This document shows, piece by piece, positions 1 through 23,927 of a DNA stretch of 24,000 nucleotides; the first letter of the stretch is position 1, and each line of letters starts with the position of its first letter. The notes under the pieces are model-generated. The model did no database searches and was not told where the DNA came from. It saw nothing but the letters and a program-made list of their open reading frames with translations. Made by a program: the position numbers and the translations under genes. The stretch comes from Methanobacterium sp. (GTDB lineage Archaea; Methanobacteriota; Methanobacteria; Methanobacteriales; Methanobacteriaceae), in contig NZ_JBNAKN010000005.1 in NCBI RefSeq assembly GCF_049723875.1, positions 15,112-39,111 on the forward strand. The letters are read 5' to 3'.

Positions 1-1003
1 ATCTTGCATAAACAGATCTTGCAATATTAGGATCGTTAGTTCCTTTAATTATTGCTCTTCCATCTCGAAATACAGATATTTCATATTTTTCTGTCTTAAA
101 AAGCAAAATAAAATCGGCGCATTTAATGCTGCCTAAGTGTTCCAGGTTAGATGCAAGCTCTCTTAAATCCATATCTTTTGGATCTGCAGGAGTTATTTGA
201 ATTGCATTTCGACCGCAAAGAGAGGTAATAATTTCTCTATCTTCTGAGTTCAGATATTCATATTCTTCAAGGGAACAGCAGTTACATTCATCATTTTTTC
301 TGACGAGTATTTCATCCATTGAATGATTCCATGCATCATAAACTATAAGACGCCCATCCTGTTCATTTTCTGGCCTTGCTTCACCAAGAAGTATTCTTAT
401 AGCTTCTGTACTTGCCATCGATCCCATAATCACGGTTATGGTATTTAATACACCCATTGTATCACATGTTGGGAGCGAACCTGGTTTTGGAATATGTGGG
501 TAAAGACATCGAATACATGCAGCACCAGGTAAGATATTCATTGTCATTCCTGATGTTCCGATTGCACCAGTGTATATCCATGGAATTTCTTCTCGAACAC
601 ACACATCGTTTATGAGCATTCTTGTTAGGATGTTATCTGTCCCATCAAGAACTAAATCAACGTCTTTTATGATTTCTTCCACGTTAGTATGGTTTAAATC
701 TTTTACAATAGGTTCAACTTCAATAGCAGAGTTAATGAGTTTAAGTTTTTTGGTTGCAGCAACCGCTTTTGGTTCTCCAACATCAGTTTCATCAAATAAT
801 ACCTGTCTTTGTAAATTATTTAATTCAACAAAATCTCTATCTAAAATGGATATTTTACCAATTCCAGCACGTGCAAGATTATTTGCGGCGGCTGTTCCAA
901 GAGCTCCACATCCTACAATAAGAACATGGCTTTCTGAAAGTCTTTTTTGACCTTCTTCCCCAATGTTCTGTAATATTTCCTGTCGTGAGTATCTATTTTC
1001 CAT
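1..1003 (-). CDS. ThiF/MoeB/HesA-family E1-like adenylyltransferase (partial; 3' end runs off the left edge)
   Basis: My own minus-strand translation from the ATG at 1003..1001 reads MENRYSRQEILQNIGEEGQKRLSESHVLIVGCGALGTAAANNLARAGIGKISILDRDFVELNNLQRQ... and stays open to position 1. It has the RYSRQ motif, a GxGxxG Rossmann motif and a Cys cluster (CIRC...PTCD) typical of the family. A GGTGA sits 7 nt upstream of the ATG. It is missing from the ORF track because no stop lies inside the window; track ORF 570..950(+) is its antisense shadow. Confidence 0.8.
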   Translation of the reverse strand, partial: MENRYSRQEILQNIGEEGQKRLSESHVLIVGCGALGTAAANNLARAGIGKISILDRDFVELNNLQRQVLFDETDVGEPKAVAATKKLKLINSAIEVEPIVKDLNHTNVEEIIKDVDLVLDGTDNILTRMLINDVCVREEIPWIYTGAIGTSGMTMNILPGAACIRCLYPHIPKPGSLPTCDTMGVLNTITVIMGSMASTEAIRILLGEARPENEQDGRLIVYDAWNHSMDEILVRKNDECNCCSLEEYEYLNSEDREIITSLCGRNAIQITPADPKDMDLRELASNLEHLGSIKCADFILLFKTEKYEISVFRDGRAIIKGTNDPNIARSVYAR

Positions 1004-1145
1004 ATTTCAATCACCTGAAGTTTTGGGTCAATCCCTGTAAAAATTGAAAATATTTACGGTTGCGAAGCTCTGCTTCGTAAACATCAAAAATCTTCGATTT
1101 TTGATAGGATTGTCTGGAGTATCTATTTTCCATGTTATATTCACC
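981..1145. repeat. Hairpin array A1 flanked by an imperfect 35-nt direct repeat that duplicates the ThiF-like start codon region
   Basis: Direct repeats at 981..1015 and 1111..1145 match at 29/35 positions, with a 17-nt exact core gagtatctattttccat that includes the start codon. Between them are the stem-loops tgcgaagc-tct-gcttcgta (1061..1079) and atcaaaaatc-ttc-gatttttgat (1083..1105, 10-bp perfect stem). Confidence 0.85.
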
Positions 1146-1186
1146 AGATATGTAAGTTACTATATAAAATTTAATAAAAACAAAAA

Positions 1187-2527
1187 TTATGCAGTTATAG
1201 GATTCATATCTTCAATATTTACCCTTTTTCCAATAATTTGAGCCAACCGTTTAGCAAGCGCAGTCACTGTAAGTATTGGAGGCCTACCTGGAGCCTGTGG
1301 AATTACACTTGCATCTGCAATGAAAAGTCCTTTAATTTTAGTTTCAAGGTTGTTATCAACCACTTTACCAACTGCGGCTGTTCCACCAGGGTGAGCTCCC
1401 CTTATTGGTGTTGAAACTATTGATAAAGGATCCACACCCGCTTTAACGAGTACTTCAACACTTTTTTCATATCCTTCTTTTAAGAGCTCAAGATCTCTTT
1501 CAGTAAGAGGCTTTTCAATATATTTATTTGAATTAAGTTTTCCATTGGCTTCATCAGCTATTTTAACCATTATACCCATTACATCCTCAGGATTTGCATT
1601 GAATCCTTTCTCTTCTAAAAGAGGTATAATTTGAGTAGAGAAATGTGGAGATAAGAAATATGGGCCAAATTCAGCTTTAGTTCCCATTGGAATCTCTTTG
1701 TTAAGTTTTGCATCCTCTAAAAATCCCCCAACAGTTATAAAAAGATCACAGAATAATCCTTCACCAACATTTTCTTCAATTTCAGAATTTTTTAGAATAA
1801 CAGGAGTATTTAAAGCACCTGCAGCAATTATTACCTTTTTTGCCTCGAAAGCTTTTGTTTTATCTCCAAATAGGCCCTCAACTCCAGTAACTTTTCCATC
1901 ATCATGTGTGATTTTTGTAACTGTGAAATCTGAAATGAGTGTTGCTCCATTATCCATGGCTTCGTTTACAAATTGAGTTGAATCCCATTTTGCACCTTTT
2001 TTACAACCACCGATACACAGTCCACAACTGTTACACTTGGAAAAATCAATGAATTTAGGCATAGGCTCCATGAAATAGCCGAGACTTTCTCCAGCATCGA
2101 CTATTTTACGTGTTGCAGGTCCCATTAAATTAGCTGGAAATGGGTTAACTTTTAAATCTGCACTTGCATCTATAAGTTCCTTGAAGAGATCAAGGTCATG
2201 AATTTTAAATTGAGTTGTTGCAGAATTAGAATAACATGTACTACACGCATAACACGCGTTTGCAAGTGAAACGGGCGTTGTACCGCCTACATCTTCCAGA
2301 TACATTAATTCTGCAGGGTAATTAAGAAAATCATATTTAGCTAGGTCTTTATTAGATAAATCTGCCTTTAAATCTAGAGGAATATTTTTGAGATAATTTA
2401 CAGATGTGCCAGTTTTATGGCGTTTTCCTTTTTCCAAAATCAAGACTTTATAGTCTTTTTTTGAAAGTTCTCTCGCTACTGTGGCGCCCCCAGCACCAGT
2501 TCCTATTACTATTACGTCAAAAGTCAT
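1187..2527 (-). CDS. FAD-dependent GMC-family oxidoreductase
   Basis: The N-terminal dinucleotide-binding motif MTFDVIVIGTGAGGATVARELS and the C-terminal ADASVIPQAPGRPPILTVTALAKRLA resemble the GMC oxidoreductase C-domain. I place the start at the ATG at 2527 (MTFDVIV) rather than the track start at 2569. Confidence 0.7.
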   Translation of the reverse strand: MTFDVIVIGTGAGGATVARELSKKDYKVLILEKGKRHKTGTSVNYLKNIPLDLKADLSNKDLAKYDFLNYPAELMYLEDVGGTTPVSLANACYACSTCYSNSATTQFKIHDLDLFKELIDASADLKVNPFPANLMGPATRKIVDAGESLGYFMEPMPKFIDFSKCNSCGLCIGGCKKGAKWDSTQFVNEAMDNGATLISDFTVTKITHDDGKVTGVEGLFGDKTKAFEAKKVIIAAGALNTPVILKNSEIEENVGEGLFCDLFITVGGFLEDAKLNKEIPMGTKAEFGPYFLSPHFSTQIIPLLEEKGFNANPEDVMGIMVKIADEANGKLNSNKYIEKPLTERDLELLKEGYEKSVEVLVKAGVDPLSIVSTPIRGAHPGGTAAVGKVVDNNLETKIKGLFIADASVIPQAPGRPPILTVTALAKRLAQIIGKRVNIEDMNPITA

Positions 2528-2684
2528 AAAATTCACTTCAAAAATAATTTTAAAATATATTTGTAACAATTGTTATATAACAATCGTTATTTATAGTTTT
2601 TGTTTAAAAATTCAAGTGACCAGTAAATTGAAGTCCTTCGAAATTATAACTTATAATACTTACAAAATAAACCGAATTAAATAT

Positions 2685-3185
2685 ATGAAATGCTGTGAAA
2701 TTATGAATAAGACCATAATACTCGCTATTTTTTTAGTTATAGCATCAAACATTTCTACTGTTTCAGCATGGGACTGGATTACACATGATGAAATAGCAGA
2801 AAGTAACTACTATTCATTACCTGAAGATATGCAGCATAATTTAAACTTGGATCTAATAAAAAAAGGATCTATATCTCCAGATTTTATATTTCTTGATTTT
2901 AAATATCATAGTTACCCCAATAGTTATGGAAAAGCTATTTACTGGTTAAACAAAGGACAATCATACTATAAAAAAGGTGATTTTTATTATGCAAGTTATT
3001 GTTACGGTGTATCATCCCATTATATTACAGACAGCTTTTCAGCACCCCATGCTGCCGGTATGACTGGTGTCCAACATCTTATCTATGAGACAAAAGCCAG
3101 CTTTTTAAAGCCCGAAGTAGTAGATGTTACAGGAAGTTTAAATTCCACCATGTATAAGGGGGATTTAAACGGAACAAAAAACTGA
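2685..3185 (+). CDS. Secreted zinc-dependent hydrolase of the phospholipase C / S1-P1 nuclease superfamily
   Basis: A signal peptide (MNKTIILAIFLVIASNISTVSA) precedes a mature N-terminus WDWITH, matching the Trp1...His6 zinc ligands of nuclease P1. It also has HYITDSFSAPH (H-x3-D-x5-H) and QHLIYE (H-x3-E) ligand spacing. The start is the ATG at 2685 or 2703; the track start at 2481 lies in the divergent promoter region. Confidence 0.55.
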   Translation: MKCCEIMNKTIILAIFLVIASNISTVSAWDWITHDEIAESNYYSLPEDMQHNLNLDLIKKGSISPDFIFLDFKYHSYPNSYGKAIYWLNKGQSYYKKGDFYYASYCYGVSSHYITDSFSAPHAAGMTGVQHLIYETKASFLKPEVVDVTGSLNSTMYKGDLNGTKN

Positions 3186-3361
3186 AACATGTGGATTAAA
3201 AATAAAAATAATTCTTTGATCCAAAATAGTTTAGATCATGCTACAGGTACATCTTACAATGCAATATACATTTCTTTAAAAGATGCATATCCTATTAAGG
3301 AAAATAAATCAGATAATAATACCAGATTAAAGTTTTTAATGCCTTTCGATCCAATTTAATT

Positions 3362-4171: not shown

Positions 4172-4485
4172 TTAAGGATTTAATACATAGCAATTTAAAT
4201 ATTTCCATAATTATTTGGAATTCATTTTTATTTGATTTAAACTAATTTTTTGCATAAAATATTAAAATTTAGAATAAATCATGAAGATTTTCTCAATTAA
4301 TTTACACTTAAACTATTAAGATAGATTAATACATTAAATTGCATTTAATAAATATAATAAAAGTTCAAAGCTTATTATGGATGATAAAAACGAGTTAATA
4401 TAAAATAATGATATAAAATAGCAAAAAACTTTAATGAGTTAATGATTTTACAAATTTAAAATAGATTATTTTAAATAAAAATAGA

Positions 4486-5745
4486 TTATGCATCATCTTT
4501 AGTTCTGACTGCACATAAGCTTTGATTTTGCAAATCATGTTTTTTAGGCTTTTCTATAGTCTTGAAAATACTTTTTGCATTCTCAATTAAGTTTTTATCA
4601 TCATTTTCAGCGGCATTTTTGATATTTCTTATGATATCACAGAAAATTTTATCCACTACAACCTGCGTGAGGTCTTCCACTATTTTTTCCTTGCCTTCAA
4701 TGTCTCCAAGCATTCTAAATGCTTTTTCAGTTTCATGAGACCTTATTTTTTCTGCATTTCTTCTTATATCTGAAATAAGAGATTCAACTTCAAGACGTTT
4801 TAATGATTTTTTCAGAAGTAACAGTTCTTCTTCAATGATTTTTTCGGCATCTTTAGCTTCAGATTCCCTTAATTCCCTGTTTTTATCGGCGATTCCCCTT
4901 AAATCATCTATATTAAATAATTTAACCCCAAGTTTTTTGACATCTTCCTCGACGTCTCTTGGATTTGCAATATCCACCATTACAAGTTTTTCCAGTTTTT
5001 CTGGTGAAACAGCATTTTTTATTTTTTCACAAGTTAAAATAGGGTGGGGCGCTCCAGTAGCACTTATTATAACATCAGCATCACTCATAGCTTCATCTAA
5101 CTTGTCAAAATGTATTGCATATCCACCAAGTTCTTTTGCAAGGTCTACTGCACGGTCATGAGTTCTATTAGCTACAACTATCGCTTTAAGATGTTTTTGA
5201 ACCAATGCTTTTGCAACGAGAGTTCCCATTTTTCCAGCACCAATTACAAGGACTTTTTTACATTTTAAATCCCCATGTACTGACTCTGCAAGTTCTACTG
5301 CTGCAGAACCTATTGAAATAGATCCTTTGTTAATATTAGTCTTTTTTCGAACTACCTGACCCACATGAATAGCCTTTGTAAATATGGTATCTAAAAGCTC
5401 TCCAGCATACCCATCATTGAGATGTTTCTTTCGGGCATCTTTTATCTGTCCCAGTATCTGATCTTCACCTATTATCATAGATTCCAATCCGCAGGAAAGC
5501 CTTAAAAGGTGATTTAATGCATGATCATCGGTTTCAACTACAAAATCAAGGAAATCAATATTATCAATATAACAATCATTTAAAACTAAGTAAAGTTCAG
5601 CACGGTTACATGTTTTCATCTGGAGATACTCACGTACGCGGCATTCATCCTTGATTTTCTCAAAGATTTCACCCATCTGAGAAGTAGACTTCTCCATTGT
5701 ACATATATCCGCCGTATTATGGTCGATTCTGATATTTAGAATCAT
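4486..5745 (-). CDS. hemA: Glutamyl-tRNA reductase
   Basis: [12 protein letters not shown]..., the [10 protein letters not shown] active-site Cys region, the NADPH motif [10 protein letters not shown] and a C-terminal coiled-coil dimerisation domain are all typical. I place the start at the ATG at 5745, preceded by a GGGGG-containing RBS; the track start at 5793 adds 16 unlikely residues. Confidence 0.9.
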
Positions 5746-5815
5746 TTTACGCCCCCAACTAACATTTAAATTATTAAAACCACTGAAAATCAATGGAATT
5801 TTGCAAATTATAGCA

Positions 5816-6430
5816 TTAATTACTTAATTGCTGTTCTATATATTTTTTAGCATCTTCTAAATTTCCCTGCCTTAGATATTCCTGTATGTTTTTATCATTT
5901 AAAATTTTATATAAATAATCTCTACGTTTTTTTTGATCATTCATATTTTCTTTTAAAATGTTTCGTGTGAAATTCTGGAGTTCTAACTGTAAAACATCTT
6001 CTTCAAGTATCACTTTTTGTATTCTTTTTCTTAACTCTTTTGCCATAAGAGGGCTTTTTCCACCAGTAAATATACAAAATTGCACATCCCCTATAGAAAA
6101 AGAAGAAGGAATAATTAAATTACCTTCATCTGGCTGATCGGCCCGATTTAAAAGCTTTCCTTTGGCTAATTTTGCCACGCGCTCATTTAATTCATGATCT
6201 CCAGTAGATATTACCACAAGATCAGACCAATTAATCCATTTTTCAACTTCATCTAAAGGTTTGAAAGTAGCTCCAAGATCAATTAGATCATTTAAAATTT
6301 CTTTATTTATAATAGTAACATTGGCCCCTGATTCAAGGAATCTTCGGGCTCTTCGAGTTCCAACCTCTCCTGCACCAACAATTAAAACATTTTTGTTTTC
6401 CATTTGCAGGAAAAGAGGTGTCCAACCCAT
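5816..6430 (-). CDS. sirC: Precorrin-2 dehydrogenase / sirohydrochlorin ferrochelatase (CysG N-terminal-domain type)
   Basis: The N-terminus is typical of the family: [41 protein letters not shown]. It is about 200 aa and sits immediately upstream of hemA in the same orientation. Confidence 0.8.
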
Positions 6431-6706
6431 ATTTAGATCTCCGATTCATAATTGAAATTTAGTTGACTTAACCTTTTCCCTAAAAGATTAATATTGTCGA
6501 AAGTTATGGACTTTCTGACCTGAAAAATCAGTGATTTTTCAGGGGTTTTTTGATCAAGCCTTTTTTCTCTGAAAAAAGCCCTTGAAAATCTACGATTTTC
6601 GGGGCGCCAAAAATTCAAAGAATTTTTGAGCGGTTGATGCTGTAGAGATGTCCAACCCATATTTAGATCTCCAATTCATAATTAAAATTTAATTGGCTTA
6701 ACCTTT
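6414..6706. repeat. Hairpin array A2 flanked by a 63-nt direct repeat that duplicates the sirC start codon and leader
   Basis: Direct repeats 6414..6476 and 6644..6706 match at 58/63 positions, and all 5 mismatches are G/A transitions. Stem-loops lie between them: cctgaaaaatca-g-tgatttttcagg (6519..6543), cttttttc-tct-gaaaaaag (6560..6578), gaaaatc-tac-gattttc (6584..6600) and caaaaattc-aaa-gaatttttg (6608..6628). Confidence 0.9.
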
Positions 6707-6755: not shown

Positions 6756-7235
6756 TTATTTGCTTGATTCTAAACTTTTCATCTTCAAAATCTTTGCAGC
6801 CATCCTTAAATCGTTTCCACATTCTTGAAGAATGTTATTTGCTTCTTCTTCTGGAATATCAAAAGCATCAGCAAGTGCCTTAACTTCTTCCTGTGATGAT
6901 TCAGATACGCCTACAAGCTCTTCAGATAATTGTTTTTTAAGTTCCATATATTCATCAGAGCTCATGTTTATCCTTCTCATTACCATATCCCTTAAAGGAC
7001 ATGGTTTGGATGGTTTACAGCACCAGACAAGAGAACCAAAACAGGTTCCTTCTCCTTGACCTAATCTTGTTTTTTTACCAAATTCTTCTTTTTTTGCTAT
7101 ATAATCTTGAGAACTGAGATTTGCATCTTCAAGTGCATATATAATTGGGCAAGGTTTAACTGGCGGACAACAAAATGCCAACGCTCTTTTGTCCCCTCCC
7201 CTGCATACGTGTGATGGTGAATCTTCCCATACCAT
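6756..7235 (-). CDS. Small cysteine-rich protein with two CC-P-x-KPCP motifs and a UBA-like C-terminal helical domain (possibly a methanogen-specific marker protein)
   Basis: An internal duplication is visible: CRGG...[16 protein letters not shown] and [21 protein letters not shown]. The C-terminal [26 protein letters not shown] resembles the UBA domain of archaeal NAC/EF-Ts. It lies directly upstream of atwA. I cannot confirm a family name without a search. Confidence 0.6.
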
Positions 7236-7322
7236 TATATTCCTCCATTATAAATCTAGTATTTTAACTGAAAATCTAATTTTCAGTAATTAAAAATAAT
7301 TTAAATCTGAAAAAAATAAAAT

Positions 7323-8918
7323 TTAGTCTTCAGTAAGCATTTCTTTCTTTTCAGTTGGAGTCAAATCTTCTACTATATCCTTTGGATCTCCTATTTTGAG
7401 GATTCTTCCCCCTCTCATAAGAGCAGCCCTATCACAGACATCGAGTACAAAGTCCATATCGTGGGATATTATAACAAAAGTTTGACTTAATTCATCTCTC
7501 GCCTTTATTATAGAATCTGTAACCTGGACTCTAGTTATCGGGTCCATAGTTCCAGTAGGTTCATCAAGAATGATTATGTTAGGTTCTTTTATTAAAACTT
7601 GCGCTAAAGCAACCCTGTGACGTTCACCGCCACTTAATTCATCAGGATATTTATCCAATAAGCTTGTAGCATATTGTTCATCGAATCCAACTACTTTGAG
7701 CGTGTATATTGCTTTCATTTTTGCAAATTCTGCAGGTAATTCTAAACTTATAGCTTCAGTTAAATTCCCTAAAACAGTCCTATGAGGGTAAAGACTGTAT
7801 TCTTGATGAAGAATACCCAAATAAGGTTTTATTCTTCCCCTCCCAAGAGGGCCTGATTGGGTCATGTCAATCCAGTCATCCCCCAGTTTTGCAGATATAT
7901 TACCCGAACTTGGCTCTGTTAATCCATAAAGTATCCTTGAAAGAGTTGTTTTACCTGCCCCACTTAAACCAACAATACCAAAAATTTCTCCTTCACCAAT
8001 AGTCAGACCTATACCATCTACAGCTTTAATTACTCCCCTTTCAATGGAGTAATAATGCTTTTTGACGTCTTCCATTTCGATGATTGGGCCGCCAGTTTCG
8101 AATTCTTCTTTCTTTTCAGGAAGTGGAACCTGTTCTAAAAATCTAGCTACGACCTCTTCAGGGTCACCTTCATCTACTATTTCTCCCCTTTCAAGCCAGA
8201 TTACATAATCAGAAAGTTTTCTCATAACTTCAGGCCAGTGAGAAGTTATAATCATTGTAGTGCCTTTTTCTTTTACACCTTCAAGCAAAGCGTGGTGTAA
8301 AAGTTCAGCAGTTTTTGGATCAAGTGTACCTGTAGGTTCATCTGCAAGAAATATCATAGGTTCCTTTGCTATTTGTCTTGCAAGCACTACCCTTTGTTTT
8401 TCCCCACCACTTAGATCTCTTGCAATATGAGTTATCCTGTGAGTCATCTGGGTCATTTCAAGGAGATCTATAGCCATATATGTACTTTCTTCCTCATCAT
8501 GACCATTAATGGATTTTAATACATTATCGATTACAGTATCATCTTCATAGAGGGCAAATGTCCTCTGTAACATTATTGAAATTCTTTTTCTAACTGCAGC
8601 AAATATTTTCCTATCGGTGTCCCACAGATCAACACGTTCTGCTTCAAATTCACCGCCGCAGGAACATTTCTGTCCGACTTTTGATGGAGGATCTACCATG
8701 TAACACTTTGAACATAATGCAATATTTAAGATAATTTTACCATTATCAGGTTTATATTCCTTCATTCCACGAAGCATGTTAATAAGAACTGATTTTCCAG
8801 CGCCGCTTCTACCTAAAATTCCCAATACGCTGCCTTCATTTATAGTTATACTCAAATTTTTTAAAATTTCTACGTCATTAAATGTTTTAGTGACGTTTTC
8901 TAATTCTATAAAAGACAT
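7323..8918 (-). CDS. atwA: Methyl-coenzyme M reductase system component A2 (tandem ABC ATPase)
   Basis: It has two ABC cassettes: Walker A GRSGAGKS and GLSGAGKT, signatures LSGGEKQR and LSGGERHR, and Walker [10 protein letters not shown] and [10 protein letters not shown] Cys4 insertion (CSKC...CSCGG) sits in cassette 1. It has no TM domain and is about 530 aa, as expected for component A2. Confidence 0.8.
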
Positions 8919-10548: not shown

Positions 10549-11450
10549 AAAATTTCACCCAAAATAATTCTGGCTAACCTCACTTTATCATTGATGGTCT
10601 TCATGTTTGTGTTTGTTATAACGACCTTTGATATTAGTTTTTCTATTTTTTTCTCAGATTCTATGTCCTCAACATCTATGATAAACTTGTCCATAAATTC
10701 CTTATAAATTGTTGCAACACCTTCACACGATACTTCGTATCCCATTGCATTCATAAACTTTGCTGCGGGACCACTTACAGGATTTCCACCTATTATTGGA
10801 GATACTGCAACAACATAAGAGTTTTTAAGAGCTTTTCTTACTCCATTCATTGAGATTATTGGCCCTATGGATGTTATCGGATTAGATGGCCCTATTATGA
10901 CCATATCTGAATCTTCAATAGTACTTATTACATCATCTGAAGGTTCAACATCTGCATATATTATATCTTCCACTTCAGGCTGTGCCTTTTTTCCAACCAG
11001 AAATTCGTGGAAGCTCATTTCCCCTTCATCTGTTATAATCTTGATATTAGATTGCTCATCACTCATAGGAATGATCTTTGATTTAACACCTAATTTTTTT
11101 CTTTGAATATCTACGACTTCAGAAAGAGGATACTTCTCCATTAGCATAGTCTTTTGTATCTTAATGGCGCGATCTTCATCCCCAATTCTTAAAATCTCAT
11201 TATAACCCATTTCTTTTAAAGTTTCATGGGTTGTAAATGTATCTTTGTCAATACCGTACCATGTGTTTTCATTTATAATTCCTGCGAGAGTATACATCAC
11301 AGTATCTATATCTGGTGCTATATAGTTTCCTGATATATATGTATTTTCTACTGTGTTTACAATTATATTGAGATCTTCGGGATCGGTTGTCTGGACTATC
11401 CCCTGAATTAATTTTGGAGTTCCAGTTCCTCCAGAAAGTATTGTTATCAT
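10545..11450 (-). CDS. cofD: 2-phospho-L-lactate transferase (F420 biosynthesis)
   Basis: It has the characteristic CofD N-terminus [18 protein letters not shown], is about 300 aa, and neighbours cofE. Confidence 0.9.
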
Positions 11451-11708
11451 ATAGCTCGTTTTTAAAGTTTGTTTTGTAGTTAATGATTTTAATGAAGATT
11501 AAAGCATACACGTTTTATTTATAGTTAAATACTCACTATTTTTTGGATCATATTAATCTTTTGAAAATCACAGCCCACAGGTTTTTAGGATTTGATGCTT
11601 TAATTCATGCTATTCAAAACAGTGTTTTTAAGAGTTTCAGTTTCATTAGTGAGTATTTATCCATATAACCTGTCTTTAAAGTTTGTTTGTATTAACGTTT
11701 TTATGATG
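11448..11708. repeat. Element A3: imperfect ~47-nt direct repeat duplicating the cofD start codon and leader, enclosing a ~165-nt insert
   Basis: 11448..11495 (catatagctcgtttttaaagtttgttttgtagttaatgattttaatga) and 11662..11708 (catataacctgtctttaaagtttgtttgtattaacgtttttatgatg) are roughly 80% identical with small indels and share a 14-nt exact core, tttaaagtttgttt. The insert has a 12-bp inverted repeat aaatactcacta (11527..11538) / tagtgagtattt (11647..11658) and weaker A/T-tract hairpins such as caaaac-agt-gttttt. Confidence 0.7.
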
Positions 11709-11743
11709 TTTTAAATATTACTGTAATTCACATAATTTAAGTT

Positions 11744-12505
11744 TTATCTAAATATATCATATTTTTTAGGCCTTATCAGATCGTTAGCTGTTGCATTATT
11801 ATTCTTTAATTTTTTAACGTAGTCAACGCCCCTTATTATAACAACAGGTATTCCTTCATCTGCTTGACCCATTAAAATTGATGCCGCAGATGCTAATTCA
11901 TCTGCAACAGCGATACTTGTAGTTTGAAGTTCCCTTCCGTAGAGATCTTTTTCACCTTTTCTATCCCAAAGAGCATTCATTCCAGATATACCAATTGCAG
12001 TACCAATAGCTCCTTCTCGAAAGGCCCTTCCTTGAGTATCCGATATTATAACAACAACTTCCTTTTCACTCAAAGTTTCTATTTTTTTCATTATAAGAGA
12101 TGCGCTTTTATCTGGATCTTCAGGCATAGGTGTAGCCATATCATTTTCCACATTCGATTCATCTATTCCTGCATTTGCACACACAAAGCCATGTTTAGTT
12201 TCACTAATTATAAAATCAGGACCTACTTTTAATATTTCAGTAGATTCCTGAATTATTGCCTCTACAACATGAGGATCTTTTCCCGTTTTTTCTGCAAGTT
12301 CAAGGGCTTTTTGAGTTGGTTTAATAGTTTTAAGGTTGATTTTATTTCCTTCTGCCTTTGATATTATAGTTTCAGCTATGACAAAAATATCTCCATCTTC
12401 AATGTTAATATATTCATCATTCATTGCATCTACTATTAAAGCAGCGATGTCATCGCCTTCTGCAATTAAAGGAATATTTTCAATTCCAATGATCTTGATA
12501 TCCAT
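11744..12505 (-). CDS. cofE: Coenzyme F420-0:L-glutamate ligase
   Basis: [20 protein letters not shown]... and [19 protein letters not shown] are typical CofE motifs. I place the start at the ATG at 12505 (GGTGA RBS), which avoids overlapping purO; the track start at 12565 is unlikely. Confidence 0.85.
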
Positions 12506-14557: not shown

Positions 14558-14623
14558 GTAAAATCTGTGATTTTTTACCAGCAAAAACTTCAGTTTTTAT
14601 GCCGTGAAAATTATAGTTTTCAC
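14558..14623. repeat. Hairpin array A4 (three modules)
   Basis: The three modules are gtaaaatc-tgt-gattttttac (14558..14578), gcaaaaac-ttca-gtttttatgc (14581..14602, imperfect) and gtgaaaa-ttatag-ttttcac (14604..14623). The array lies between the rnhB stop and the exbB-like start. Confidence 0.75.
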
Positions 14624-16563: not shown

Positions 16564-16564
16564 T

Positions 16565-17203
<639 letters not shown>

Positions 17204-17289
17204 GTCTTACTTCTCATGGTAGAACTCCACACATAATAAATAAATAATTTTTTTAAATATTTTAGAAAATATGTAATATTTTCTAACTC

Positions 17290-17413
17290 TTACAAATCTT
17301 TGATTTTTAATGCTCACAAAACATAAGGTTTTATGGCCGTAAAAACTTTGTTTTTTCATGTAGAAAAAGCGTTGCTTTTCCAACTCCCAAAAAATTCTAC
17401 AAATTTTTTGAGG
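17290..17413. repeat. Hairpin array A5 (about five modules) in a divergent intergenic region
   Basis: The modules are tacaaatc-ttt-gattttta, acaaaac-ataag-gttttat, aaaaac-ttt-gttttt, gaaaagc-gtt-gcttttc (~17362..17381) and caaaaaatt-ctac-aattttttg (~17387..17411). I found no flanking direct repeat. Confidence 0.7.
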
Positions 17414-17686
17414 ATTTGCATACTTATTTTAATATACTATTACAATTCCTACATATAAAAAACTATAAATAAATATGCCCAAATTTATCCCAATAGTACC
17501 CCACTAATATGTTATATAATATATGACAATTAAGCAGAATAGTTATATAAACTTTTATGAATTGATAAGATAGTAAATTAAATGCATATCTCCTTGTTAA
17601 AAAAGAGCACTTAACTCTTTAAAACAAGTTGAATGTATTAAAATTCTATTTTTTAATATTAATAAGATTAAATGTGGAAAAAATTC

Positions 17687-17720
17687 AAAATTTTGAATAT
17701 AAAAAAATTTTGAATATAAA
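17687..17720. repeat. Perfect tandem duplication of a 17-mer (AAAATTTTGAATATAAA x2) overlapping a 16-bp palindrome
   Basis: 17687..17703 equals 17704..17720. The first copy is embedded in the perfect palindrome attcaaaattttgaat (17683..17698). It lies about 120 nt upstream of the psd start. Confidence 0.85.
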
Positions 17721-17836
17721 TCAATTCATGAAAGACATGTTTCTATATTTTTTATACAAACAATTTTTATAATAATAAGCATAAAAAGTCTGCAGTAAAT
17801 CCATTGATAATATTCATTAAAAAATTTGTGATTCTT

Positions 17837-18747: not shown

Positions 18748-19458
18748 ATGAATATTAAATCTTTTACATCTATTGCAGACATAGTTTCAATTGCGAACGC
18801 TTCATCAGGATTTCTAGCAATCATAATGGTAACAACAGGTAATTTTGTATTAGCCGCTAAGTTTATGTTACTAGCAGTCATATTTGACGCGTTAGACGGA
18901 TGGGTTGCCAGGAAATTAAATAGAAAAGATGAATTTGGTTTTGGAAAGAACGTCGATTCTTTATCAGACATTATATCCTTTGGAGTCGCTCCAGGAATGT
19001 TTTTGTATATATTAAGCCAGTCCTCAGGAATATTCTACTTTAATATAATTGTAGCTCTTTTAATAGTCATATGCGGGATACTGAGACTTTCAAGATTCAA
19101 TGTAATTACAGATTCACATGATGACAAGTTTGTTGGGTTACCTATTCCATCAACAGCATTGATACTCTCCTCATTTTATCTTTCAGGATTTTTCAATGCA
19201 AGCTTAGCTTTAGTCATTATGACTGTTGTATCCCTATTCATGATAAGTACAGTCAAATATCCCAAATTTAGAGGCATTAAAACATTAGCAGTGGGGAGCA
19301 TACTAATTATAGCAACGCTATTACCTCAAAACATTTTATCATATATTACCTATTTCCCCGCAAAGCTTTTATTTATTATTATGCTACTATACTTATTGAT
19401 TGTACCAGTTATAGATTTATACATTAAATTCTTTAGAAGTGGTCCGAATGTTAGATAA
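18748..19458 (+). CDS. pssA: CDP-alcohol phosphatidyltransferase: CDP-archaeol/diacylglycerol--serine O-phosphatidyltransferase
   Basis: It carries the CDP-alcohol phosphatidyltransferase motif DALDGWVARKLNRKDEFGFGKNVDSLSDIISFG (D-G-x2-A-R-x8-G-x3-D-x3-D), is polytopic, and has a GGGGG RBS. Confidence 0.85.
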   Translation: MNIKSFTSIADIVSIANASSGFLAIIMVTTGNFVLAAKFMLLAVIFDALDGWVARKLNRKDEFGFGKNVDSLSDIISFGVAPGMFLYILSQSSGIFYFNIIVALLIVICGILRLSRFNVITDSHDDKFVGLPIPSTALILSSFYLSGFFNASLALVIMTVVSLFMISTVKYPKFRGIKTLAVGSILIIATLLPQNILSYITYFPAKLLFIIMLLYLLIVPVIDLYIKFFRSGPNVR

Positions 19459-20731
19459 GATACGTGGAAAAAAGAAAGACGATACAGATACTCCTGATCT
19501 TAGGGGAAATAACAATAAGAAGGATGACTCTGATATAGGAGGACGCCTTAAAGGCATGGTAGGCAAAGTAACTGGAAGAGGAGACGAAGATAAAAAAGAA
19601 GAAATGAAAGCTCCTCCAGAAAGGAAAATGCCACGACCTATGCCTAAACCTATGGCAAAACCCGGTGAAAAACCACGGTTAAAATCTCCTCAAAAGAGAC
19701 CAGAAGATAAAAGGCCAGGAATGGGTGGTTTTGGAAGAAGAATCCCTGATGATGATCAGAGGACTCTTGTTGGAGCTGCAGTTTTTGGAATAATATTGAT
19801 TGTACTTGTTGGAGCAGGTTATTACTTTTTAGTTTATGCACCTTATCAAGATACATTATCAAATGCCAAACAAACAAAACTTAGTGCAGTTAATACATAC
19901 TTTACAGGGCCACTAGCAACAGATGCACGGGGAATAAATCTTAGAGCTCAAATTGAGAGTGCTACAACGCCTGATCAAGTAGATGCTATAGATGTTCTTG
20001 GTCCCGCAACAGAAGCGTGGAGAGAATATCAAAATCAACAGATTAATTCACAAAAGGATGCCTATGGGCGAGTTATGATAACATATGCTGCAGGTACGCA
20101 GAAGAATGTAATATTAAAAGTTGCAGACGCTAAAACATTGGTTTCACAGGCAGATGCCACTGTCTTATCAAACATGGAAATTAAAACCCCAAATACTGTG
20201 GCTATTCCAATAATAATTTCTAGATTACAGGCTGCAGGAGGCCTTATAAATGTCGGAAATTCGGTTGACGTGTATTTACTGAATGATACTTCAAACAGCA
20301 CCGTATCAACAAATGGTACTCCTCAAATAAGTGGGGCAACTGTTCTCGCAATTCTAAGAGCTAAAAACAGTGGAACAATAAATGCAAATAAGTCACATGC
20401 AACAGATATTGCCATGAGCAATCTGGTTCAAGGTAGTTCACGCAGTGAATCCGCATCAGAAGATGTTGATGAACTTTTAAAAGCTGCTGCTGCCAATAAC
20501 TGGGATCAAAGTGAAGTAAGTTCCTTATTGAACTCATATGGTTGGAGATTATCAGATTTCGAGAGAAGTTCAAACCTCGGAGAACTTGATGCACAATACC
20601 TATTATTACTAGAGGTTCCAAGAGAAAATGCAATATTCCTTATACAAAATATGAACAACGTTATACTTACAGTCCCAACCCAGCAAGCTCCGAACTGGAT
20701 GATTAAGGAGCTGAAGCAAATATACGGATAA
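19448..20731 (+). CDS. Single-pass membrane protein: basic Pro/Lys-rich N-terminal tail, one TM, large extracytoplasmic domain (CpaB/RcpC-like architecture, unconfirmed)
   Basis: The ATG at 19448 overlaps the pssA stop by 11 nt (a GTG at 19439 is an alternative start). The tail includes ...KMPRPMPKPMAKPGEKPRLKSPQKRPEDKRP..., and the TM is LVGAAVFGIILIVLVGAGYYFLV. Downstream, IPIIISRLQAAGGLINVGNSVDVYLL and YLLLLEVPRENAIFLIQNMNNVILTV recall the SAF/beta-clip and C-terminal segments of Flp-pilus CpaB. That resemblance is inference only. Confidence 0.6.
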   Translation: MLDKIRGKKKDDTDTPDLRGNNNKKDDSDIGGRLKGMVGKVTGRGDEDKKEEMKAPPERKMPRPMPKPMAKPGEKPRLKSPQKRPEDKRPGMGGFGRRIPDDDQRTLVGAAVFGIILIVLVGAGYYFLVYAPYQDTLSNAKQTKLSAVNTYFTGPLATDARGINLRAQIESATTPDQVDAIDVLGPATEAWREYQNQQINSQKDAYGRVMITYAAGTQKNVILKVADAKTLVSQADATVLSNMEIKTPNTVAIPIIISRLQAAGGLINVGNSVDVYLLNDTSNSTVSTNGTPQISGATVLAILRAKNSGTINANKSHATDIAMSNLVQGSSRSESASEDVDELLKAAAANNWDQSEVSSLLNSYGWRLSDFERSSNLGELDAQYLLLLEVPRENAIFLIQNMNNVILTVPTQQAPNWMIKELKQIYG

Positions 20732-20742
20732 TCATCCAAGCA

Positions 20743-20790
20743 GGATATATGTGATAAATCGGGCCATTTTAAGGGAAATCACATATATCC
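20743..20790. promoter_or_regulatory. 13-bp perfect inverted repeat (ggatatatgtgat / atcacatatatcc) with a 22-nt spacer, upstream of the sortase-substrate gene
   Basis: The arms at 20743..20755 and 20778..20790 are perfectly complementary. The repeat starts 12 nt after the stop of the upstream gene and ends 28 nt before the ATG at 20818. It could be a terminator/attenuator stem-loop or a dimeric regulator site. Confidence 0.5.
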
Positions 20791-20817
20791 CCATATAATA
20801 ATAAAAAGGGGATAGTA

Positions 20818-21759
20818 ATGAATATAAATAAAATGTGTATTGTATTAATGGTATTTATTGCAGTTATAGGAATAATAGGTTCAAATTCAACTAGTAATGC
20901 GGTATATGGGGCAGAAACATGGGTAAAACCAGAGAATACTAGCGTGTATATGACCAACTTTTATGTGACTATTCATGCTACTATTAAAAATAATGAAAAT
21001 CATGTTCAGTATTTTAAAATAAGTCAAACTTATACTGATAGTCTAGACAGCCCTATTAATTGGCAGATTACCAGTAAACCCGGCGCAGTAAAAATGGTAG
21101 ATTCAGTTTCTCCAGAACTTAATGGAGACTGGGGATGGAAAATACAACCAGGACAAACAAAAACAGTGTGTTTTACCCTTTTAGCTGTTAGTAGTAATAA
21201 TACGGGCCAAGCTGCGAGATTTAATATATTAAATAAAGGTTCTGTAGCAAATAAATACTGGCCAATAATTCCAGATCCAGGTTTATATACTTCATGGTTT
21301 CAGCCAAATGAAATAGAAATACTTAATCCAAGTTTAGATCTTAAGTACTGGAAAGGACAATTTAGTTTTGTGCTTTTGAACTATGATTCACACAGTGTTT
21401 CAGGAATAATAAGAGCTCCAATAGTACCAACTGATTCAAAACTTGTAGCTAGCAGTCCAAAAGCAACATTTTTAGATAATGACATAGTAATGAACGGGAA
21501 AGTTGCAGCATGGGACGTTACTTTAGGTCCAGATGGTTCAGATACGGGTGCAGGATTTTATAAATATACTTATGTATGGCCTTATTCAGGTTCATCATCA
21601 TCAGGCATAGGGAAATACTCATCAACATCAATACCAACAGCCAATGCAGCATCAGACAATTCATCAGCATCCACTAAAAATACAGGGATTCCATACTTCC
21701 CATTCGTAATTGGAGGTATTTTAGCTGCCGGCGGACTAGCATATGCAAGACTTAGATGA
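20818..21759 (+). CDS. Secreted surface protein with a tripartite C-terminal sorting signal (candidate sortase substrate)
   Basis: It has an N-terminal signal peptide (MNINKMCIVLMVFIAVIGIIGSNSTSNA) and a Ser-rich linker. The C-terminus reads ...SSASTKNTG-IPYFPFVIGGILAAGGLAYA-RLR, i.e. short motif, hydrophobic stretch, basic tail. The RBS is GGGGA. It lies immediately upstream of a sortase gene. Confidence 0.65.
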   Translation: MNINKMCIVLMVFIAVIGIIGSNSTSNAVYGAETWVKPENTSVYMTNFYVTIHATIKNNENHVQYFKISQTYTDSLDSPINWQITSKPGAVKMVDSVSPELNGDWGWKIQPGQTKTVCFTLLAVSSNNTGQAARFNILNKGSVANKYWPIIPDPGLYTSWFQPNEIEILNPSLDLKYWKGQFSFVLLNYDSHSVSGIIRAPIVPTDSKLVASSPKATFLDNDIVMNGKVAAWDVTLGPDGSDTGAGFYKYTYVWPYSGSSSSGIGKYSSTSIPTANAASDNSSASTKNTGIPYFPFVIGGILAAGGLAYARLR

Positions 21760-21815
21760 TAACTCATAAAAAATAACATTAACCTTAATAATAATAAACG
21801 ATAAAAAAAGGTTAC

Positions 21816-22550
21816 ATGAAGTTATCAACACTTTTTATCATAGCAGGGATGGTAATCATCTCCCTTTATTTTATGGTAGAAGTAAGTTTCTATGCAACAA
21901 CAGAGAATGTTGTTCTAAATAAATCAGATACTCCTTTTCTTGAAATACCCAAAATAAGTGTTGATCAAAATATCAACAACAAATCCGTAAATTACGGAGT
22001 GTATTATGAACCCGAATCTGCAAAACCCGGTTATGGAACTGTGGTACTAGCAGGACACAGAACATTTTACAGTTCTCCTTTCTTAAATCTAGATAAACTA
22101 AAAACTGGAGATAATATAACTGTATCATGGCCAGAAATAGGAAATGTCCAGTACACAGTAGTAAGATCATATATTGTTCCTGCATCATACCAGCTATCTT
22201 TAGATCAGGGCAAAACTCTTATTCTGTATACATGTTATCCTCTGGGATCATCCAAAGAAAGATTAATTATACAGGCAAATCAAACTAAAATAACCCCATT
22301 TGCCTATTCAAAAGCAGCAAATTCGAATAACGGGAAAAAAGATTTCCCATATGCTCCGTTATTAATAGCTGCCTTTTTAGGAATAGGTTTAGTCTTAAGC
22401 TATTTATATCCTGTAAAAGATGATAAAATATTTATTTTCATAACTGCAGTTGCCCTCACACTGTTTTTATTATATGGGTACCTGTTTCCAGTTCCAGGAG
22501 ATCAAATATCATCACAGATATCCAATTTGAGCGATATATTTGGAGGTTGA
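21816..22550 (+). CDS. Sortase-family cysteine transpeptidase, membrane anchored (N-terminal TM plus two C-terminal TMs)
   Basis: LEIPKISVDQNI...PGYGTVVLAGHRTF supplies the His, TLILYTCYP supplies the TLxTC-type Cys, and ERLIIQA supplies the Arg, completing the sortase H-C-R triad in canonical order. The TM segments are FIIAGMVIISLYFMV, LLIAAFLGIGLVLSYLY and IFIFITAVALTLFLLYGYLF. Confidence 0.8.
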   Translation: MKLSTLFIIAGMVIISLYFMVEVSFYATTENVVLNKSDTPFLEIPKISVDQNINNKSVNYGVYYEPESAKPGYGTVVLAGHRTFYSSPFLNLDKLKTGDNITVSWPEIGNVQYTVVRSYIVPASYQLSLDQGKTLILYTCYPLGSSKERLIIQANQTKITPFAYSKAANSNNGKKDFPYAPLLIAAFLGIGLVLSYLYPVKDDKIFIFITAVALTLFLLYGYLFPVPGDQISSQISNLSDIFGG

Positions 22551-22551
22551 A

Positions 22552-22597
22552 GAAAATCTCTTCGAGATTTTCGAAACCCCAAAAACTTTGTTTTTGG
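22552..22597. repeat. Hairpin array A6 (two modules) immediately after the sortase stop
   Basis: The two modules are gaaaatctc-ttc-gagattttc (22552..22572, 9-bp perfect stem) and ccaaaaac-ttt-gtttttgg (22579..22597, 8-bp perfect stem). Confidence 0.8.
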
Positions 22598-22667
22598 AGG
22601 TTAAATCCAATATATACGCCAAATTTTATAATCAGTACCACCCAAATATAAAACCAGGTAGATTTTA

Positions 22668-23039
22668 ATGGATGTCGAAGATAAATATTTCAAAAATATT
22701 TCAAGCAGAGAACGAGCAATTTTTGAAGGTGCAATTACAATGGGCGCTTTATTCCATCAGTTTATTGGAACACCTGTAAATTCAGAAAGTGCAGAAATGC
22801 TTGAAAAATCAATAAAAAGAGCAATGGAACTTCAACCATGCATTGAAAAAGTCGAAGTGAAAATAGACAGGAAAATGCTTGAAGAAGCTAAAAGTGAATT
22901 TGATTATGTATCTCTAAACGGAGATATGATAGATGTAAGAGTAGTTTCAACATATAATAACAAAAAAGCGGTTTTAAGGATGGAATATATCAAAGAGTTA
23001 AAGTATCCTTTGATGTATGTGGAATATATTGATGAATAA
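22668..23039 (+). CDS. mptD: Probable archaeal dihydroneopterin aldolase (MptD-like, methanopterin biosynthesis)
   Basis: It is about 120 aa, with ERAIFEGAITMGALFHQFIGTPV near the N-terminus. From memory this matches the conserved ERAIFE-G-x-LGAL-HQF-GTP block of the MJ0408/MptD family. I did not verify this by search. Confidence 0.5.
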   Translation: MDVEDKYFKNISSRERAIFEGAITMGALFHQFIGTPVNSESAEMLEKSIKRAMELQPCIEKVEVKIDRKMLEEAKSEFDYVSLNGDMIDVRVVSTYNNKKAVLRMEYIKELKYPLMYVEYIDE

Positions 23040-23438
23040 TTAATAAATTACAGAATGTTTTTGATCCTATCAAACCTTCGGTTTGATTGTTTACGAAATT
23101 ACATTTCGTAACCGGAAAAATTGGAAATTTTTCCATGCCCAAAAATCAGAGATTTTCGACAGCTATTGAAAATCTTGATTTTCAATGCCGCAAAACTACG
23201 TTTCGCCGGCTTTTTTATAAAAAGCCAGCAAAATTTATAATTTTGTGGTGTGCAAAAATTATAAATTTTTGCAGTTACGAAACGCGGTTTAGTAAACGTT
23301 AAAAATCTATGATTTTTAACATCCTGCAAAATCAAGTGTTTTGCGGCCCACAAAATCCTTGATTTTGTTGGGGCTGTTGAGGAGTTAAAGTATCTTTGAT
23401 GTATGTTAAAAATATTGATGAGTAAACAAATTACAGAA
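22995..23438. repeat. Hairpin array A7: 13 consecutive stem-loops flanked by a ~60-nt imperfect direct repeat that duplicates the 3' end and stop codon of the MptD-like gene
   Basis: Direct repeats: 22995..23055 (gagttaaagtatcctttgatgtatgtggaatatattgatgaataattaataaattacagaa) and 23382..23438 (gagttaaagtatc-tttgatgtatgttaaaaatattgatgagtaa---acaaattacagaa). The stem-loops span 23069..23368. Perfect 9-10 bp examples are at 23091..23111, 23114..23134, 23165..23186, 23251..23273 and 23298..23320. Confidence 0.9.
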
Positions 23439-23470
23439 AAATTACTGTAATTACTTTTTGTGGTGACTTC

Positions 23471-23788
23471 ATGGATAGTTTAAAATTATATGATGACTTG
23501 AAATTTGCTATAAGATGTGTAGACATCTGGGAAAAGTTAAAATCAACTGATGCTGAGATGGAAGAAGTTCTTAAGCATGAAGCAAATAAAAAAAGTCTAG
23601 ATCAAAGCGCCCTATTTTGCCAGCCTTTGCAAGATTATTTAGAGATGCTAATCGCCATGATTCACAATGAGAGCGGAGAATGGTTTTTTTATGTGGATAT
23701 TGCAGGTGTTTTATACGATTTTGTTTCAACAGATGAACTTTCAGTATATAAAACTGAATCAGGTTATTGTGTCTGTTTCAAAAAATAA
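23471..23788 (+). CDS. Small acidic hypothetical protein
   Basis: A 105-codon ORF with coding-like composition and no TM or signal peptide. I recognise no motif. Confidence 0.4.
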   Translation: MDSLKLYDDLKFAIRCVDIWEKLKSTDAEMEEVLKHEANKKSLDQSALFCQPLQDYLEMLIAMIHNESGEWFFYVDIAGVLYDFVSTDELSVYKTESGYCVCFKK

Positions 23789-23884
23789 GAATTAATGGCA
23801 TAATTTATGATACATTTATTTTTATATAACTACTAACACATATTTATTTAAGATTATCTATTTAATAATCAAGCTATTAAAACT

Positions 23885-23927
23885 GTCAAAGCTGAAAGTT
23901 TTGACGCAGCAAACACCAAGTGTTTGC
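23885..23927. repeat. Hairpin array A8 (two modules)
   Basis: The two modules are gtcaaagc-tgaaa-gttttgac (23885..23906, one G-T position) and gcaaacac-caa-gtgtttgc (23909..23927, 8-bp perfect stem). Confidence 0.65.

Follow-up and report, generated by a model that had tools for sequence, protein, structure and literature searches.

We analyzed a 24-kb stretch of DNA from Methanobacterium sp. (24,000 nucleotides, referred to below as the window) in which short stem-loops are clustered in eight intergenic gaps, designated arrays A1 to A8. The window has a G+C content of 33% and carries Methanobacteriales housekeeping genes, encoding glutamyl-tRNA reductase, a siroheme-type NAD-binding protein, a two-domain ABC ATPase, CofD, CofE, IMP cyclohydrolase, RNase HII, MreB, and sortase. 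No tRNA gene was found in it. Judged from its sequence, the window comes from a low-GC Methanobacterium whose nearest relatives are Methanobacterium genomes and metagenome-assembled genomes (MAGs). Its IMP cyclohydrolase is 90% identical to that of GCA_000746075.1, 80% identical to that of M. oryzae DSM 11106, and 70% identical to a protein labeled M. formicicum at NCBI, and a 123-amino-acid (123-aa) PF04038 protein (gene at 22668-23039) is 87% identical to a MAG protein. We compared the syntenic region (10 to 20 kb) from eight relatives and the locus of the 123-aa gene from 80 species; individual loci are designated by L numbers. We report that the stem-loops belong to a dispersed, modular family of palindromes with conserved linkers, preserved pairing, and insertion polymorphism, confined to a low-GC Methanobacterium clade.

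Results

Perfect stems of at least 8 bp with loops of 2 to 5 nt numbered 22 in the window, compared with 3.1 ± 1.6 in dinucleotide-preserving shuffles. Nineteen of the 22 fell within the 3,926 intergenic bases, for which per-segment shuffles gave 1.6 ± 1.3 (maximum, 5), bearing out an earlier sequence-only reading that had claimed enrichment over random AT-rich DNA. In total, ∼34 hairpins, nearly all intergenic, are spread over the eight gaps, and the arrays cover ∼916 nt, or ∼23% of the intergenic DNA of the window. Stem-loops are present as first described in all eight gaps, A3 being weak, and the five recurring hairpin types recognized by that reading (I to V) are real and were seen again at other sites and in other genomes. 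We then measured 83 units from the window and its syntenic relatives. The loop was 3 nt long in 61 of them, stems were mostly 7 to 10 bp long, and the median center-to-center period was 26.5 nt. The A-run arm lay 5′ in 76 units and the other way in 5; it was also 5′ in 217 of the 240 units of a larger set. Units are separated by linkers of 1 to 10 nt, and these spacers have a G+C content of 60%, versus 33% for the genome. The module is a hairpin of ∼20 nt, made of an A-run, a 3-nt loop, and a T-run, and modules are joined by short G+C-rich linkers. CRISPR arrays were ruled out, as the units all differ, each is palindromic, and the spacers are merely the linkers described above.

Translation of the arrays was considered as well. 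Open reading frames (ORFs) run from duplicated ATGs through A1 and A2, and an 84-aa ORF lies over A7, but stop codons are no rarer than in dinucleotide shuffles, and these open frames are therefore compositional. ORFs of 44 to 125 aa are called atop arrays in the window (23099-23353, minus strand), L213 (16545-16922), L087 (15678-15932), and L088 (11475-11609). Such calls are very likely spurious, the arrays being stop-poor through their composition.

The k-mers shared between arrays at different sites comprised recurrent hairpin cores and a nonpalindromic motif, GGTTGAAGGAAA. We scanned public metagenome contigs with the pattern GTTGAAGGAAA-N(4-20)-TTTYCKRAACC and obtained 116 stretches. The inner bases were perfectly palindromic in 49 of the first 80 matches, nearly all of them in contigs of 29 to 38% G+C; the nonpalindromic matches, mostly in higher-GC contigs or apparent coding regions, were taken as chance. 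Together, the scan and the loci fetched earlier provided 66 distinct copies. At unlinked loci, copies are alike (75 to 86% identity) only over ∼90 to 150 nt around the element. None of the dispersed loci is syntenic with the window, and they share no coding sequence with it. The pattern also matched GTTGAAGGAAAAAAGTTTTAC/T..TTTTTTCTAAACC in L100, L117, L120, L163, and L168 (∼29 to 34% G+C), an orthologous locus of a different, array-free organism that adjoins a cluster of small membrane-anchored proteins; these matches are probably unrelated to the family.

The element has the anatomy (..TTTTG-GAG) GTTGAAGG - hpA - CCTGAACC - hpB, in which hpA and hpB are hairpins and hpA reads GGAAAnnn-loop-nnnTTTCC. 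Across the 66 copies, the linkers are conserved and the tips are variable yet perfectly paired: all 64 hpA tips are paired, and 55 of them are distinct. When the arrays of the window were matched to dispersed copies, 15 changed base pairs comprised 10 double compensated changes, 5 single changes, and no double change that broke the pair. RNAalifold recovers three hairpins; a MAFFT alignment of the whole module misregisters the variable tips. As folded RNA, the two linkers form an outer GGUU/AACC helix that closes a small internal loop rich in purines, and a canonical k-turn at this GA/AG loop was rejected because its register does not fit the fold. In addition, GGTTGAAGG and CCTGAACC flank one hairpin as an imperfect inverted repeat. 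The hairpin CCAAATAT-gaa-ATATTTGG at the end of the sortase gene had prompted the idea that the second hairpin is a fold-back copy of the local flank. This idea was rejected, since the same variant occurs at two other unlinked sites and the right arm in L087 is not native sequence.

Matches to dispersed loci that span at least two hairpins, linkers included, were found for six of the eight arrays, namely, A1, A2, A5, A6, A7, and, weakly, A8. Exact GTTGAAGG and CCTGAACC linkers occur in the window at A6 only, other matches being at chance level, and the other arrays therefore represent other linker subfamilies. A6 (22545..22602, plus strand) is one complete GTTGAAGG-family module with two hairpins, in the order GGTTGAAG, GAAAATCTC-ttc-GAGATTTTC, CGAAACC, CCAAAAAC-ttt-GTTTTTGG, AGG. 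The two hairpins of A1 (1060..1105), TTGCGAAGC-tct-GCTTCGTAA and ATCAAAAATC-ttc-GATTTTTGAT, recur at the nonsyntenic loci L199, L148, and L115, where the linkers are identical and the stem changes are compensated; the A1 match extends over 49 nt. A2 (6499..6628) has five hairpins, among them CCTGAAAAATC-agt-GATTTTTCAGG and CAAAAATTC-aaa-GAATTTTTG, and a two-hairpin segment of it gave a 47-nt match to the nonsyntenic locus L144 (91%; E value, 3e-13). A5 (17262..17410) has six hairpins and lies, as first described, between divergent genes. Its first hairpin, TTAGAAAATAT-gta-ATATTTTCTAA, and its last, CAAAAAATT-ctaca-AATTTTTTG, which is followed by AGGATTT, stand side by side at the nonsyntenic loci L154 and L196. 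A7 (23069..23368) packs 13 hairpins into 300 nt, 10 perfect and 3 with one mismatch or wobble, and multihairpin segments of it match the nonsyntenic loci L190, L154, L126, and L119. It shows a large-scale mirror symmetry, with arms at 23082-23156 and 23230-23304 (75 nt, 72% complementary) and units 2, 3, and 4 mirroring units 10, 9, and 8, an arrangement suggesting that part of the array was duplicated in inverted form or that the array grew from its center. A8 (23879..23927) has two hairpins, including GCAAACAC-caa-GTGTTTGC, of the CAAACAC type that closes many composite units; its weak match is to L171.

A3 (11520..11665) and A4 (14560..14623) had no match among the dispersed loci. A4 consists of three short hairpins. 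A3 is an old array with one clear hairpin, the others being degenerate, and a 19-nt inverted repeat (11520-11538 and 11647-11665, 89%) brackets it. This repeat is much less clear in L081 and L088 and could be a split host hairpin or a MITE (miniature inverted-repeat transposable element)-like terminal repeat. A second, perfect 10-nt inverted repeat (11498-11507 and 11595-11604) overlaps the bracketing one.

Comparison of orthologous intergenic regions turned up both filled and empty sites. Downstream of the 123-aa gene, where the window has the 13 hairpins of A7, L001 is empty (stop codon, native hairpin, next ATG), L002 has 1+5 hairpins with three copies of the gene end, and L003 has 3 hairpins, sharing the first and last hairpins of the window. 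The A2 gap, between the gene for a 159-aa protein and the NAD_binding_7 gene, measures 325 nt in the window and 95 nt in L081, where it is empty with continuous flanks; L088 is intermediate. At the A6 site, L002 has the empty sequence tttggagg|ctaaatcc where the window has one module, L081 has three modules with identical linkers and different tips, and L088 has a nested insertion. At the A2 gap of L081 and at the sortase-end A6 site of L002, the flanks run on unbroken across the empty site. The divergent gap of A5 holds 6 hairpins in the window, 10 to 13 in L081 and L092, and none in L091. At A4, the window has 3 hairpins, L081 has 4, and L087 and L088 have none; at A8, the window has 2 and L003 has four. 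The A3 gap aligns at ∼60 to 70% in L081 and L088, and the array is absent from L087, L091, and L092 (gap of 31 to 80 nt). Conversely, the gap between MreB and RNase HII is empty in the window and holds 6 to 10 hairpins in L088 and L092. In the window, a single hairpin (7267..7287, ACTGAAAAT-cta-ATTTTCAGT), conserved in L081 and L088, lies between the 159-aa gene (6756-7235) and the gene for the ABC ATPase (7323-8918); L087, L213, and L214 have ∼7 to 13 hairpins in this gap. Altogether, the same gaps are filled, empty, or differently filled in relatives, so the arrays are not positionally conserved; the conservation of position and sequence across genera that would have marked them as ordinary structured RNAs or terminators was not observed.

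The family is carried by relatives with 80 to 91% IMP cyclohydrolase identity to the window, including two cultured strains, M. oryzae DSM 11106 and GCA_000746075.1. No stem of at least 8 bp was found in 12.4 kb of L091 (91% IMP cyclohydrolase identity, same G+C content) or in L215, a Methanobacterium locus of 42% G+C. Between L081 and L082, 5 of 19 differences fell inside arrays, and nonarray intergenic DNA was variable too. Faster change of the arrays between strains was therefore not retained, this comparison not being decisive. In L213 (contig NODE_14_length_277174, UOOM01), the CofE-CofD gap reaches 964 nt (11392-12356), versus 31 to 484 nt in other relatives.

Two subtypes were distinguished. 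In the Shine-Dalgarno (SD)-associated subtype, hpB reads CCAAAAnnn-loop-nnnTTTTGG and is followed by AGG(T), so that the element ends in TTTTGGAGG with a start codon 5 to 9 nt farther on. Because its end lies at this distance from the start codon, the element supplies the ribosome-binding site. Twenty such copies stand immediately upstream of ORFs, in sense orientation, and the genes behind them have unrelated functions; they include those for the methyl-coenzyme M reductase beta subunit (mcrB), aIF5B, a 2-oxoacid:ferredoxin oxidoreductase subunit (POR), a ParA-type ATPase, an ABC permease, and an M42 peptidase. The upstream flank ends in the element's own terminal (T)TTGGAG or TTTGAG. These junction repeats are locus specific (permutation P < 0.0005) and extend to 17 nt in tandem modules, with only 2 to 5 nt at solitary insertions. 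The array-internal subtype has the conserved order hp0 - GTTGA - hpA - GAACC - hpB - AGGC - hpC and often begins directly after a stop codon. Its composites often end in CCCCAAACAC..GTGTTTGAGG and then oligo-T (GTTTTTT), and the end hairpin is GC-richer in some of them.

Some units were found nested within other hairpins. In L088, a 101-nt four-hairpin unit interrupts a hairpin at GGAAAAA^CTACGTTTTTCC, and the L081 orthologue of this split hairpin (271-289, GGAAAAAC-tac-GTTTTTCC) is intact. The same geometry was observed in L171, L164, and L162, with a unit of ∼100 nt in three different host hairpin types, one of which is that of the window hairpin 17262-17286. The split arms lie 1 to 4 nt before hp0 and 48 to 50 nt after CCTGAACC, the ends of the unit are CTGTCAAA..TTTGWCAG, and at all four loci the unit is flanked by CT..CT. 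As units sit in split host hairpins at four loci, one of which has an uninterrupted orthologue, hairpin tips appear to be insertion sites. Direct repeats at junctions vary by context, from CT in the four nested cases to 2 to 12 nt of GGAG type and to 27 to 63 nt of gene end.

The earlier description of four arrays bracketed by duplicated flanking DNA was verified. All four duplications are direct: 981-1018 and 1111-1148 at A1 (38 nt, 82%), 6414-6476 and 6644-6706 at A2 (63 nt, 92%), 11448-11474 and 11662-11688 at A3 (27 nt, 85%), and 23008-23055 and 23394-23438 at A7. Each contains a gene boundary. At A1 this is the start codon and first codons of the minus-strand gene starting at 1004; at A2, the 5′ untranslated region (UTR), ATG, and first codons of the NAD_binding_7/siroheme-type gene (5816-6430); at A3, the start of cofD, outside the inverted repeat; and at A7, the 3′ end and stop codon of the gene at 22668-23039. 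The distal copy at A7 begins at GAGTTAAAG (GAGTT(A/G)AAG), which resembles the family linker GAGGTTGAAG. A shorter duplication of 9 to 12 nt, TTTGGAGGT, comprising the last codons of the sortase gene, flanks A6, where the gene end TTTGGAGGTTGA matches the element junction. Linker-like microhomology plausibly sets the boundaries of such duplications. In L088 (11240-11745), the cofD start region is present in three copies, with an extra tandem duplication of ∼210 nt made of degenerate array and gene start; smaller events of this kind bracket A1, A2, A3, and A7 in the window. A 56-nt duplication was also found within A5 of L081. The mirror symmetry of A7, the inverted repeat of A3, and the 210-nt duplication of L088 indicate that arrays are also reshaped by inverted and tandem duplication.

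To characterize the strand properties of the family, we examined 246 units around 60 dispersed copies. Loops were equally frequent in both orientations relative to the linkers (GAA 26/TTC 24, AAA 18/TTT 16, and GTA 12/TAC 10), and no excess of G·T over A·C mismatches was seen in the element orientation. These results favor DNA-level symmetry over selection acting on a single transcript strand, and an RNA-level strand signature was rejected. Only the SD-proximal hairpin departs from this pattern, its loops being A-rich in sense orientation. RNA folding paired UUUUGG in 3 of 4 sequences; in the fourth, an alternative helix formed between the upstream repeat and the left arm of the hairpin. Rfam 15 covariance models gave nothing at the gathering score in the window and nothing at an E value of ≤1 in five element-rich loci, and a known RNA family was rejected for these sequences.

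Other features of the window lie outside the arrays. Downstream of the gene for glutamyl-tRNA reductase (4486-5793, minus strand), a gap of 314 nt harbors an isolated, perfect 10-bp hairpin (4454-4476, ATTTAAAATA-gat-TATTTTAAAT). At the 600-nt divergent gap (17203-17804), genes change orientation and the GC skew changes sign. Beside A5, a block of ∼70 nt (roughly 17413-17490) that contains a TTTATAT motif has been retained in L081 and L092; this block may represent a promoter that reads through the array.

Discussion

The arrays are probably clusters of lineage-specific, dispersed, short palindromic DNA modules, an archaeal analogue of the mosaics formed by repetitive extragenic palindromic (REP) sequences and bacterial interspersed mosaic elements (BIMEs) or of MITE-like repeats such as the pneumococcal BOX. 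The conserved linkers at unlinked loci, the filled and empty gaps, and the nested unit with an intact orthologue all support the insertion and duplication events, REP/BIME- or MITE-like, that the sequence-only reading had proposed as one possibility. The junctions suggest that new copies enter beside the SD-like sequence (T)TTGGAGG, which is also the element's own end; each insertion would regenerate its target, and tandem arrays could therefore build up. New copies would also enter the tips of existing hairpins next to CT, giving nested structures. Arrays would then be remodeled through tandem and inverted duplication, and the end of an adjacent gene may be coduplicated where the local sequence resembles a linker. 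Effects on the host are probably secondary and may include structure in UTRs and operon spacers, weak additive bidirectional termination, and, in the SD subtype, partial occlusion of the ribosome-binding site.

Several observations weigh against this interpretation. Clustering of the 571 ORFs of array-bearing loci gave no recurrent array-adjacent protein family that could represent a mobilizing gene, and a linked transposase was rejected on this ground. No conserved pair of terminal inverted repeats was found. The six copies of the UOOM01 genome all have different tips, with no recent burst of identical copies, and long-term selection on a functional structure could yield the same tip pattern. 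The 2-nt CT duplication relies on four cases, two of which are perhaps copies of one composite. The gene-end duplications of 27 to 63 nt are unlike ordinary target-site duplications, and linker-like microhomology is clear at A6 and A7 only and is not evident for A1 to A3. For L091 and L001, absence of the family was judged from just 12 kb and 6 kb, respectively. Finally, all comparisons covered the window, syntenic loci, and metagenome contigs and used sequence data alone. Carriage by a virus or plasmid was also considered; a viral sequence scan yielded two matches, both by chance and in coding sequence, and thus no sign of viral carriage.

The arrays might instead be stacked bidirectional intrinsic terminators or insulators, selected because oligo-T on both strands stops read-through between transcription units, as the sequence-only reading had suggested. 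The order of A-run and T-run (76 of 81 and 217 of 240 units) puts a U-run 3′ of the hairpin on both strands, loops are strand symmetric, most arrays lie between codirectional genes, and several composites end in CCCCAAACAC..GTGTTTGAGG followed by GTTTTTT. However, T-runs reach at least 5 nt in only 34% of units, most having fewer than 5 T, and arrays of 10 to 13 hairpins occupy the divergent gap of L081 and L092. Moreover, the SD subtype stands in sense just ahead of start codons, including those of mcrB and other essential genes with short leaders. Close relatives lack arrays in the corresponding gaps, and L091 is free of arrays altogether. Conserved linkers at unlinked loci and nested insertions would be left unexplained. 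Termination is therefore unlikely as the main explanation, and we consider weak additive termination, together with a real terminator hairpin at the terminal position, possible. The SD subtype raises a different alternative, a cis-regulatory UTR RNA in which the last hairpin sequesters part of the SD sequence and acts as a translational brake or thermosensor, with the upstream repeat as an antisequestor. Consistent with it, the right arm of the second hairpin runs into GGAGG 5 to 9 nt before the start codon, folding pairs UUUUGG in most of the sequences examined and gives the alternative repeat/left-arm helix in the remaining one, the stems covary, and the second-hairpin loops are A-rich in sense. 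Yet the downstream genes share no function, numerous copies are located within arrays, at 3′ ends, or in antisense orientation to their neighbors, there is no sense-strand G·U excess, the loops are strand symmetric overall, and no Rfam match was obtained. Presence/absence polymorphism is also unlike a dedicated regulator, and as an account of the family we judge this proposal improbable.

Two further explanations were considered. If slippage and template switching at quasi-palindromes made and perfected hairpins in place, without dispersal, the tandem and inverted duplications (the 56-nt one in A5 of L081, the 210-nt one in L088, the A7 mirror, and the flank duplications) would be expected by-products, as would the differing A- and T-run lengths of duplicated units and the compensated stem changes between similar adjacent units. 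The identical linkers and multihairpin segments at unlinked loci in several genomes, the occurrence of one second-hairpin variant at three unlinked sites, and the discrete unit inserted into an otherwise intact orthologous hairpin contradict this process as the sole explanation, which makes it very unlikely. Alternatively, the modules could be arrays of dyad-symmetric sites in double-stranded DNA bound by a dimeric protein or a chromatin component, in line with the symmetry at the DNA level, the regular ∼26-nt spacing, and the alternation of A-tracts and T-tracts approximately every 12 nt. Against this, half-sites vary freely with their complementarity kept, which fits hairpin formation better than sequence-specific binding, no candidate protein is known, and the arrays are dispensable at orthologous sites; we regard this last explanation as extremely improbable.

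With dispersal of palindromic DNA modules as the preferred interpretation, a bolder proposal can be made, which we hold as speculative and rather doubtful in its full form. The family may be a new kind of archaeal mobile DNA, in which tiny hairpin modules without a linked transposase home to SD sequences and hairpin tips, rebuild the ribosome-binding site inside a hairpin, and rewrite the UTRs of hundreds of genes, including the mcr operon, in cold-adapted and wetland Methanobacterium. Hairpin-templated copying or flip-flop would keep the changing tips paired.

About a quarter of the window's intergenic DNA consists of arrays, and by extrapolation such arrays could represent several per cent of a methanogen genome. 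Since they adjoin the start and stop codons of core genes, that of methyl-coenzyme M reductase among them, they can influence where transcripts end, how stable mRNAs are, and how translation is initiated, and their carriers matter for wetland and permafrost methane. In practice, arrays produce spurious ORF calls, may break short-read assemblies, and may serve as high-resolution strain markers. The two cultured carriers have sequenced genomes, which makes experiments feasible.

Literature searches found no prior description of such a repeat family in archaea, in agreement with the sequence-only reading, which knew of no element of this architecture in methanogens. To our knowledge, dispersed palindromic repeats have hardly been described in archaea, and we know of no archaeal RAYT-type enzyme (REP-associated tyrosine transposase). 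The REP and BIME sequences of Enterobacteria and Pseudomonas are mobilized by RAYT, a Y1 HUH transposase, and the insertion sequences IS1397 and ISKpn1 insert into REP loops. Like them, the Methanobacterium modules are short, extragenic, imperfect palindromes present in many copies in operon spacers and 3′ UTRs, several types of palindrome are joined by conserved linkers within a cluster, orthologous sites differ in copy number, and palindrome loops apparently serve as insertion targets. Unlike them, the family is archaeal, and its units are shorter (∼20 nt) and AT-rich, with the A-run 5′ and the T-run 3′. Almost every copy has a tip of its own, in contrast to the near-identical copies of REP; its arrays reach 13 units, one subtype supplies a ribosome-binding site, and no RAYT-like gene was found among the ORFs of array-bearing loci. 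A term search of the article that defines the REP tag returned no archaeal or methanogen entries (PMC3733652).

BOX (boxA-boxB(n)-boxC), the Neisseria Correia elements, and the enterobacterial repetitive intergenic consensus (ERIC) are small, nonautonomous, intergenic, and strongly structured, and some supply expression signals. The Methanobacterium family resembles them in these respects and in being modular, with a variable number of internal modules, and like them it is probably cotranscribed with neighboring genes; it differs in having no clear terminal inverted repeats and in that each module is an independent palindrome in its own right. Hairpins are not required for archaeal termination. 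The family shares T-runs on both strands with archaeal oligo-T terminators, and a hairpin plus T6 closes some composites, but most units fall short of 5 T, units also occur in 5′ UTRs and divergent gaps, and they are dispensable at orthologous sites. Hairpins are likewise the hallmark of IS200/IS605 elements and archaeal palindrome-associated transposable elements (PATEs), which also insert beside a short specific sequence, and recognition of hairpins in single-stranded DNA by an enzyme of the IS200/IS605 type would fit the symmetry at the DNA level. In contrast to these elements, the arrays have no linked TnpA or TnpB gene, their ends do not correspond to the conserved subterminal hairpins of one insertion sequence, and direct repeats are present at the junctions. 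With MITEs, the family has in common its dispersed copies and presence/absence polymorphism. Where MITEs have a target-site duplication of fixed length, its junction repeats measure 2 nt, 4 to 12 nt, or 27 to 63 nt, and where REP units carry a GTAG/CGTC tag, its units start with variable bases and are joined by the linkers GTTGAAGG and CCTGAACC. On these two features, the Methanobacterium family is set apart from both REP and MITE.

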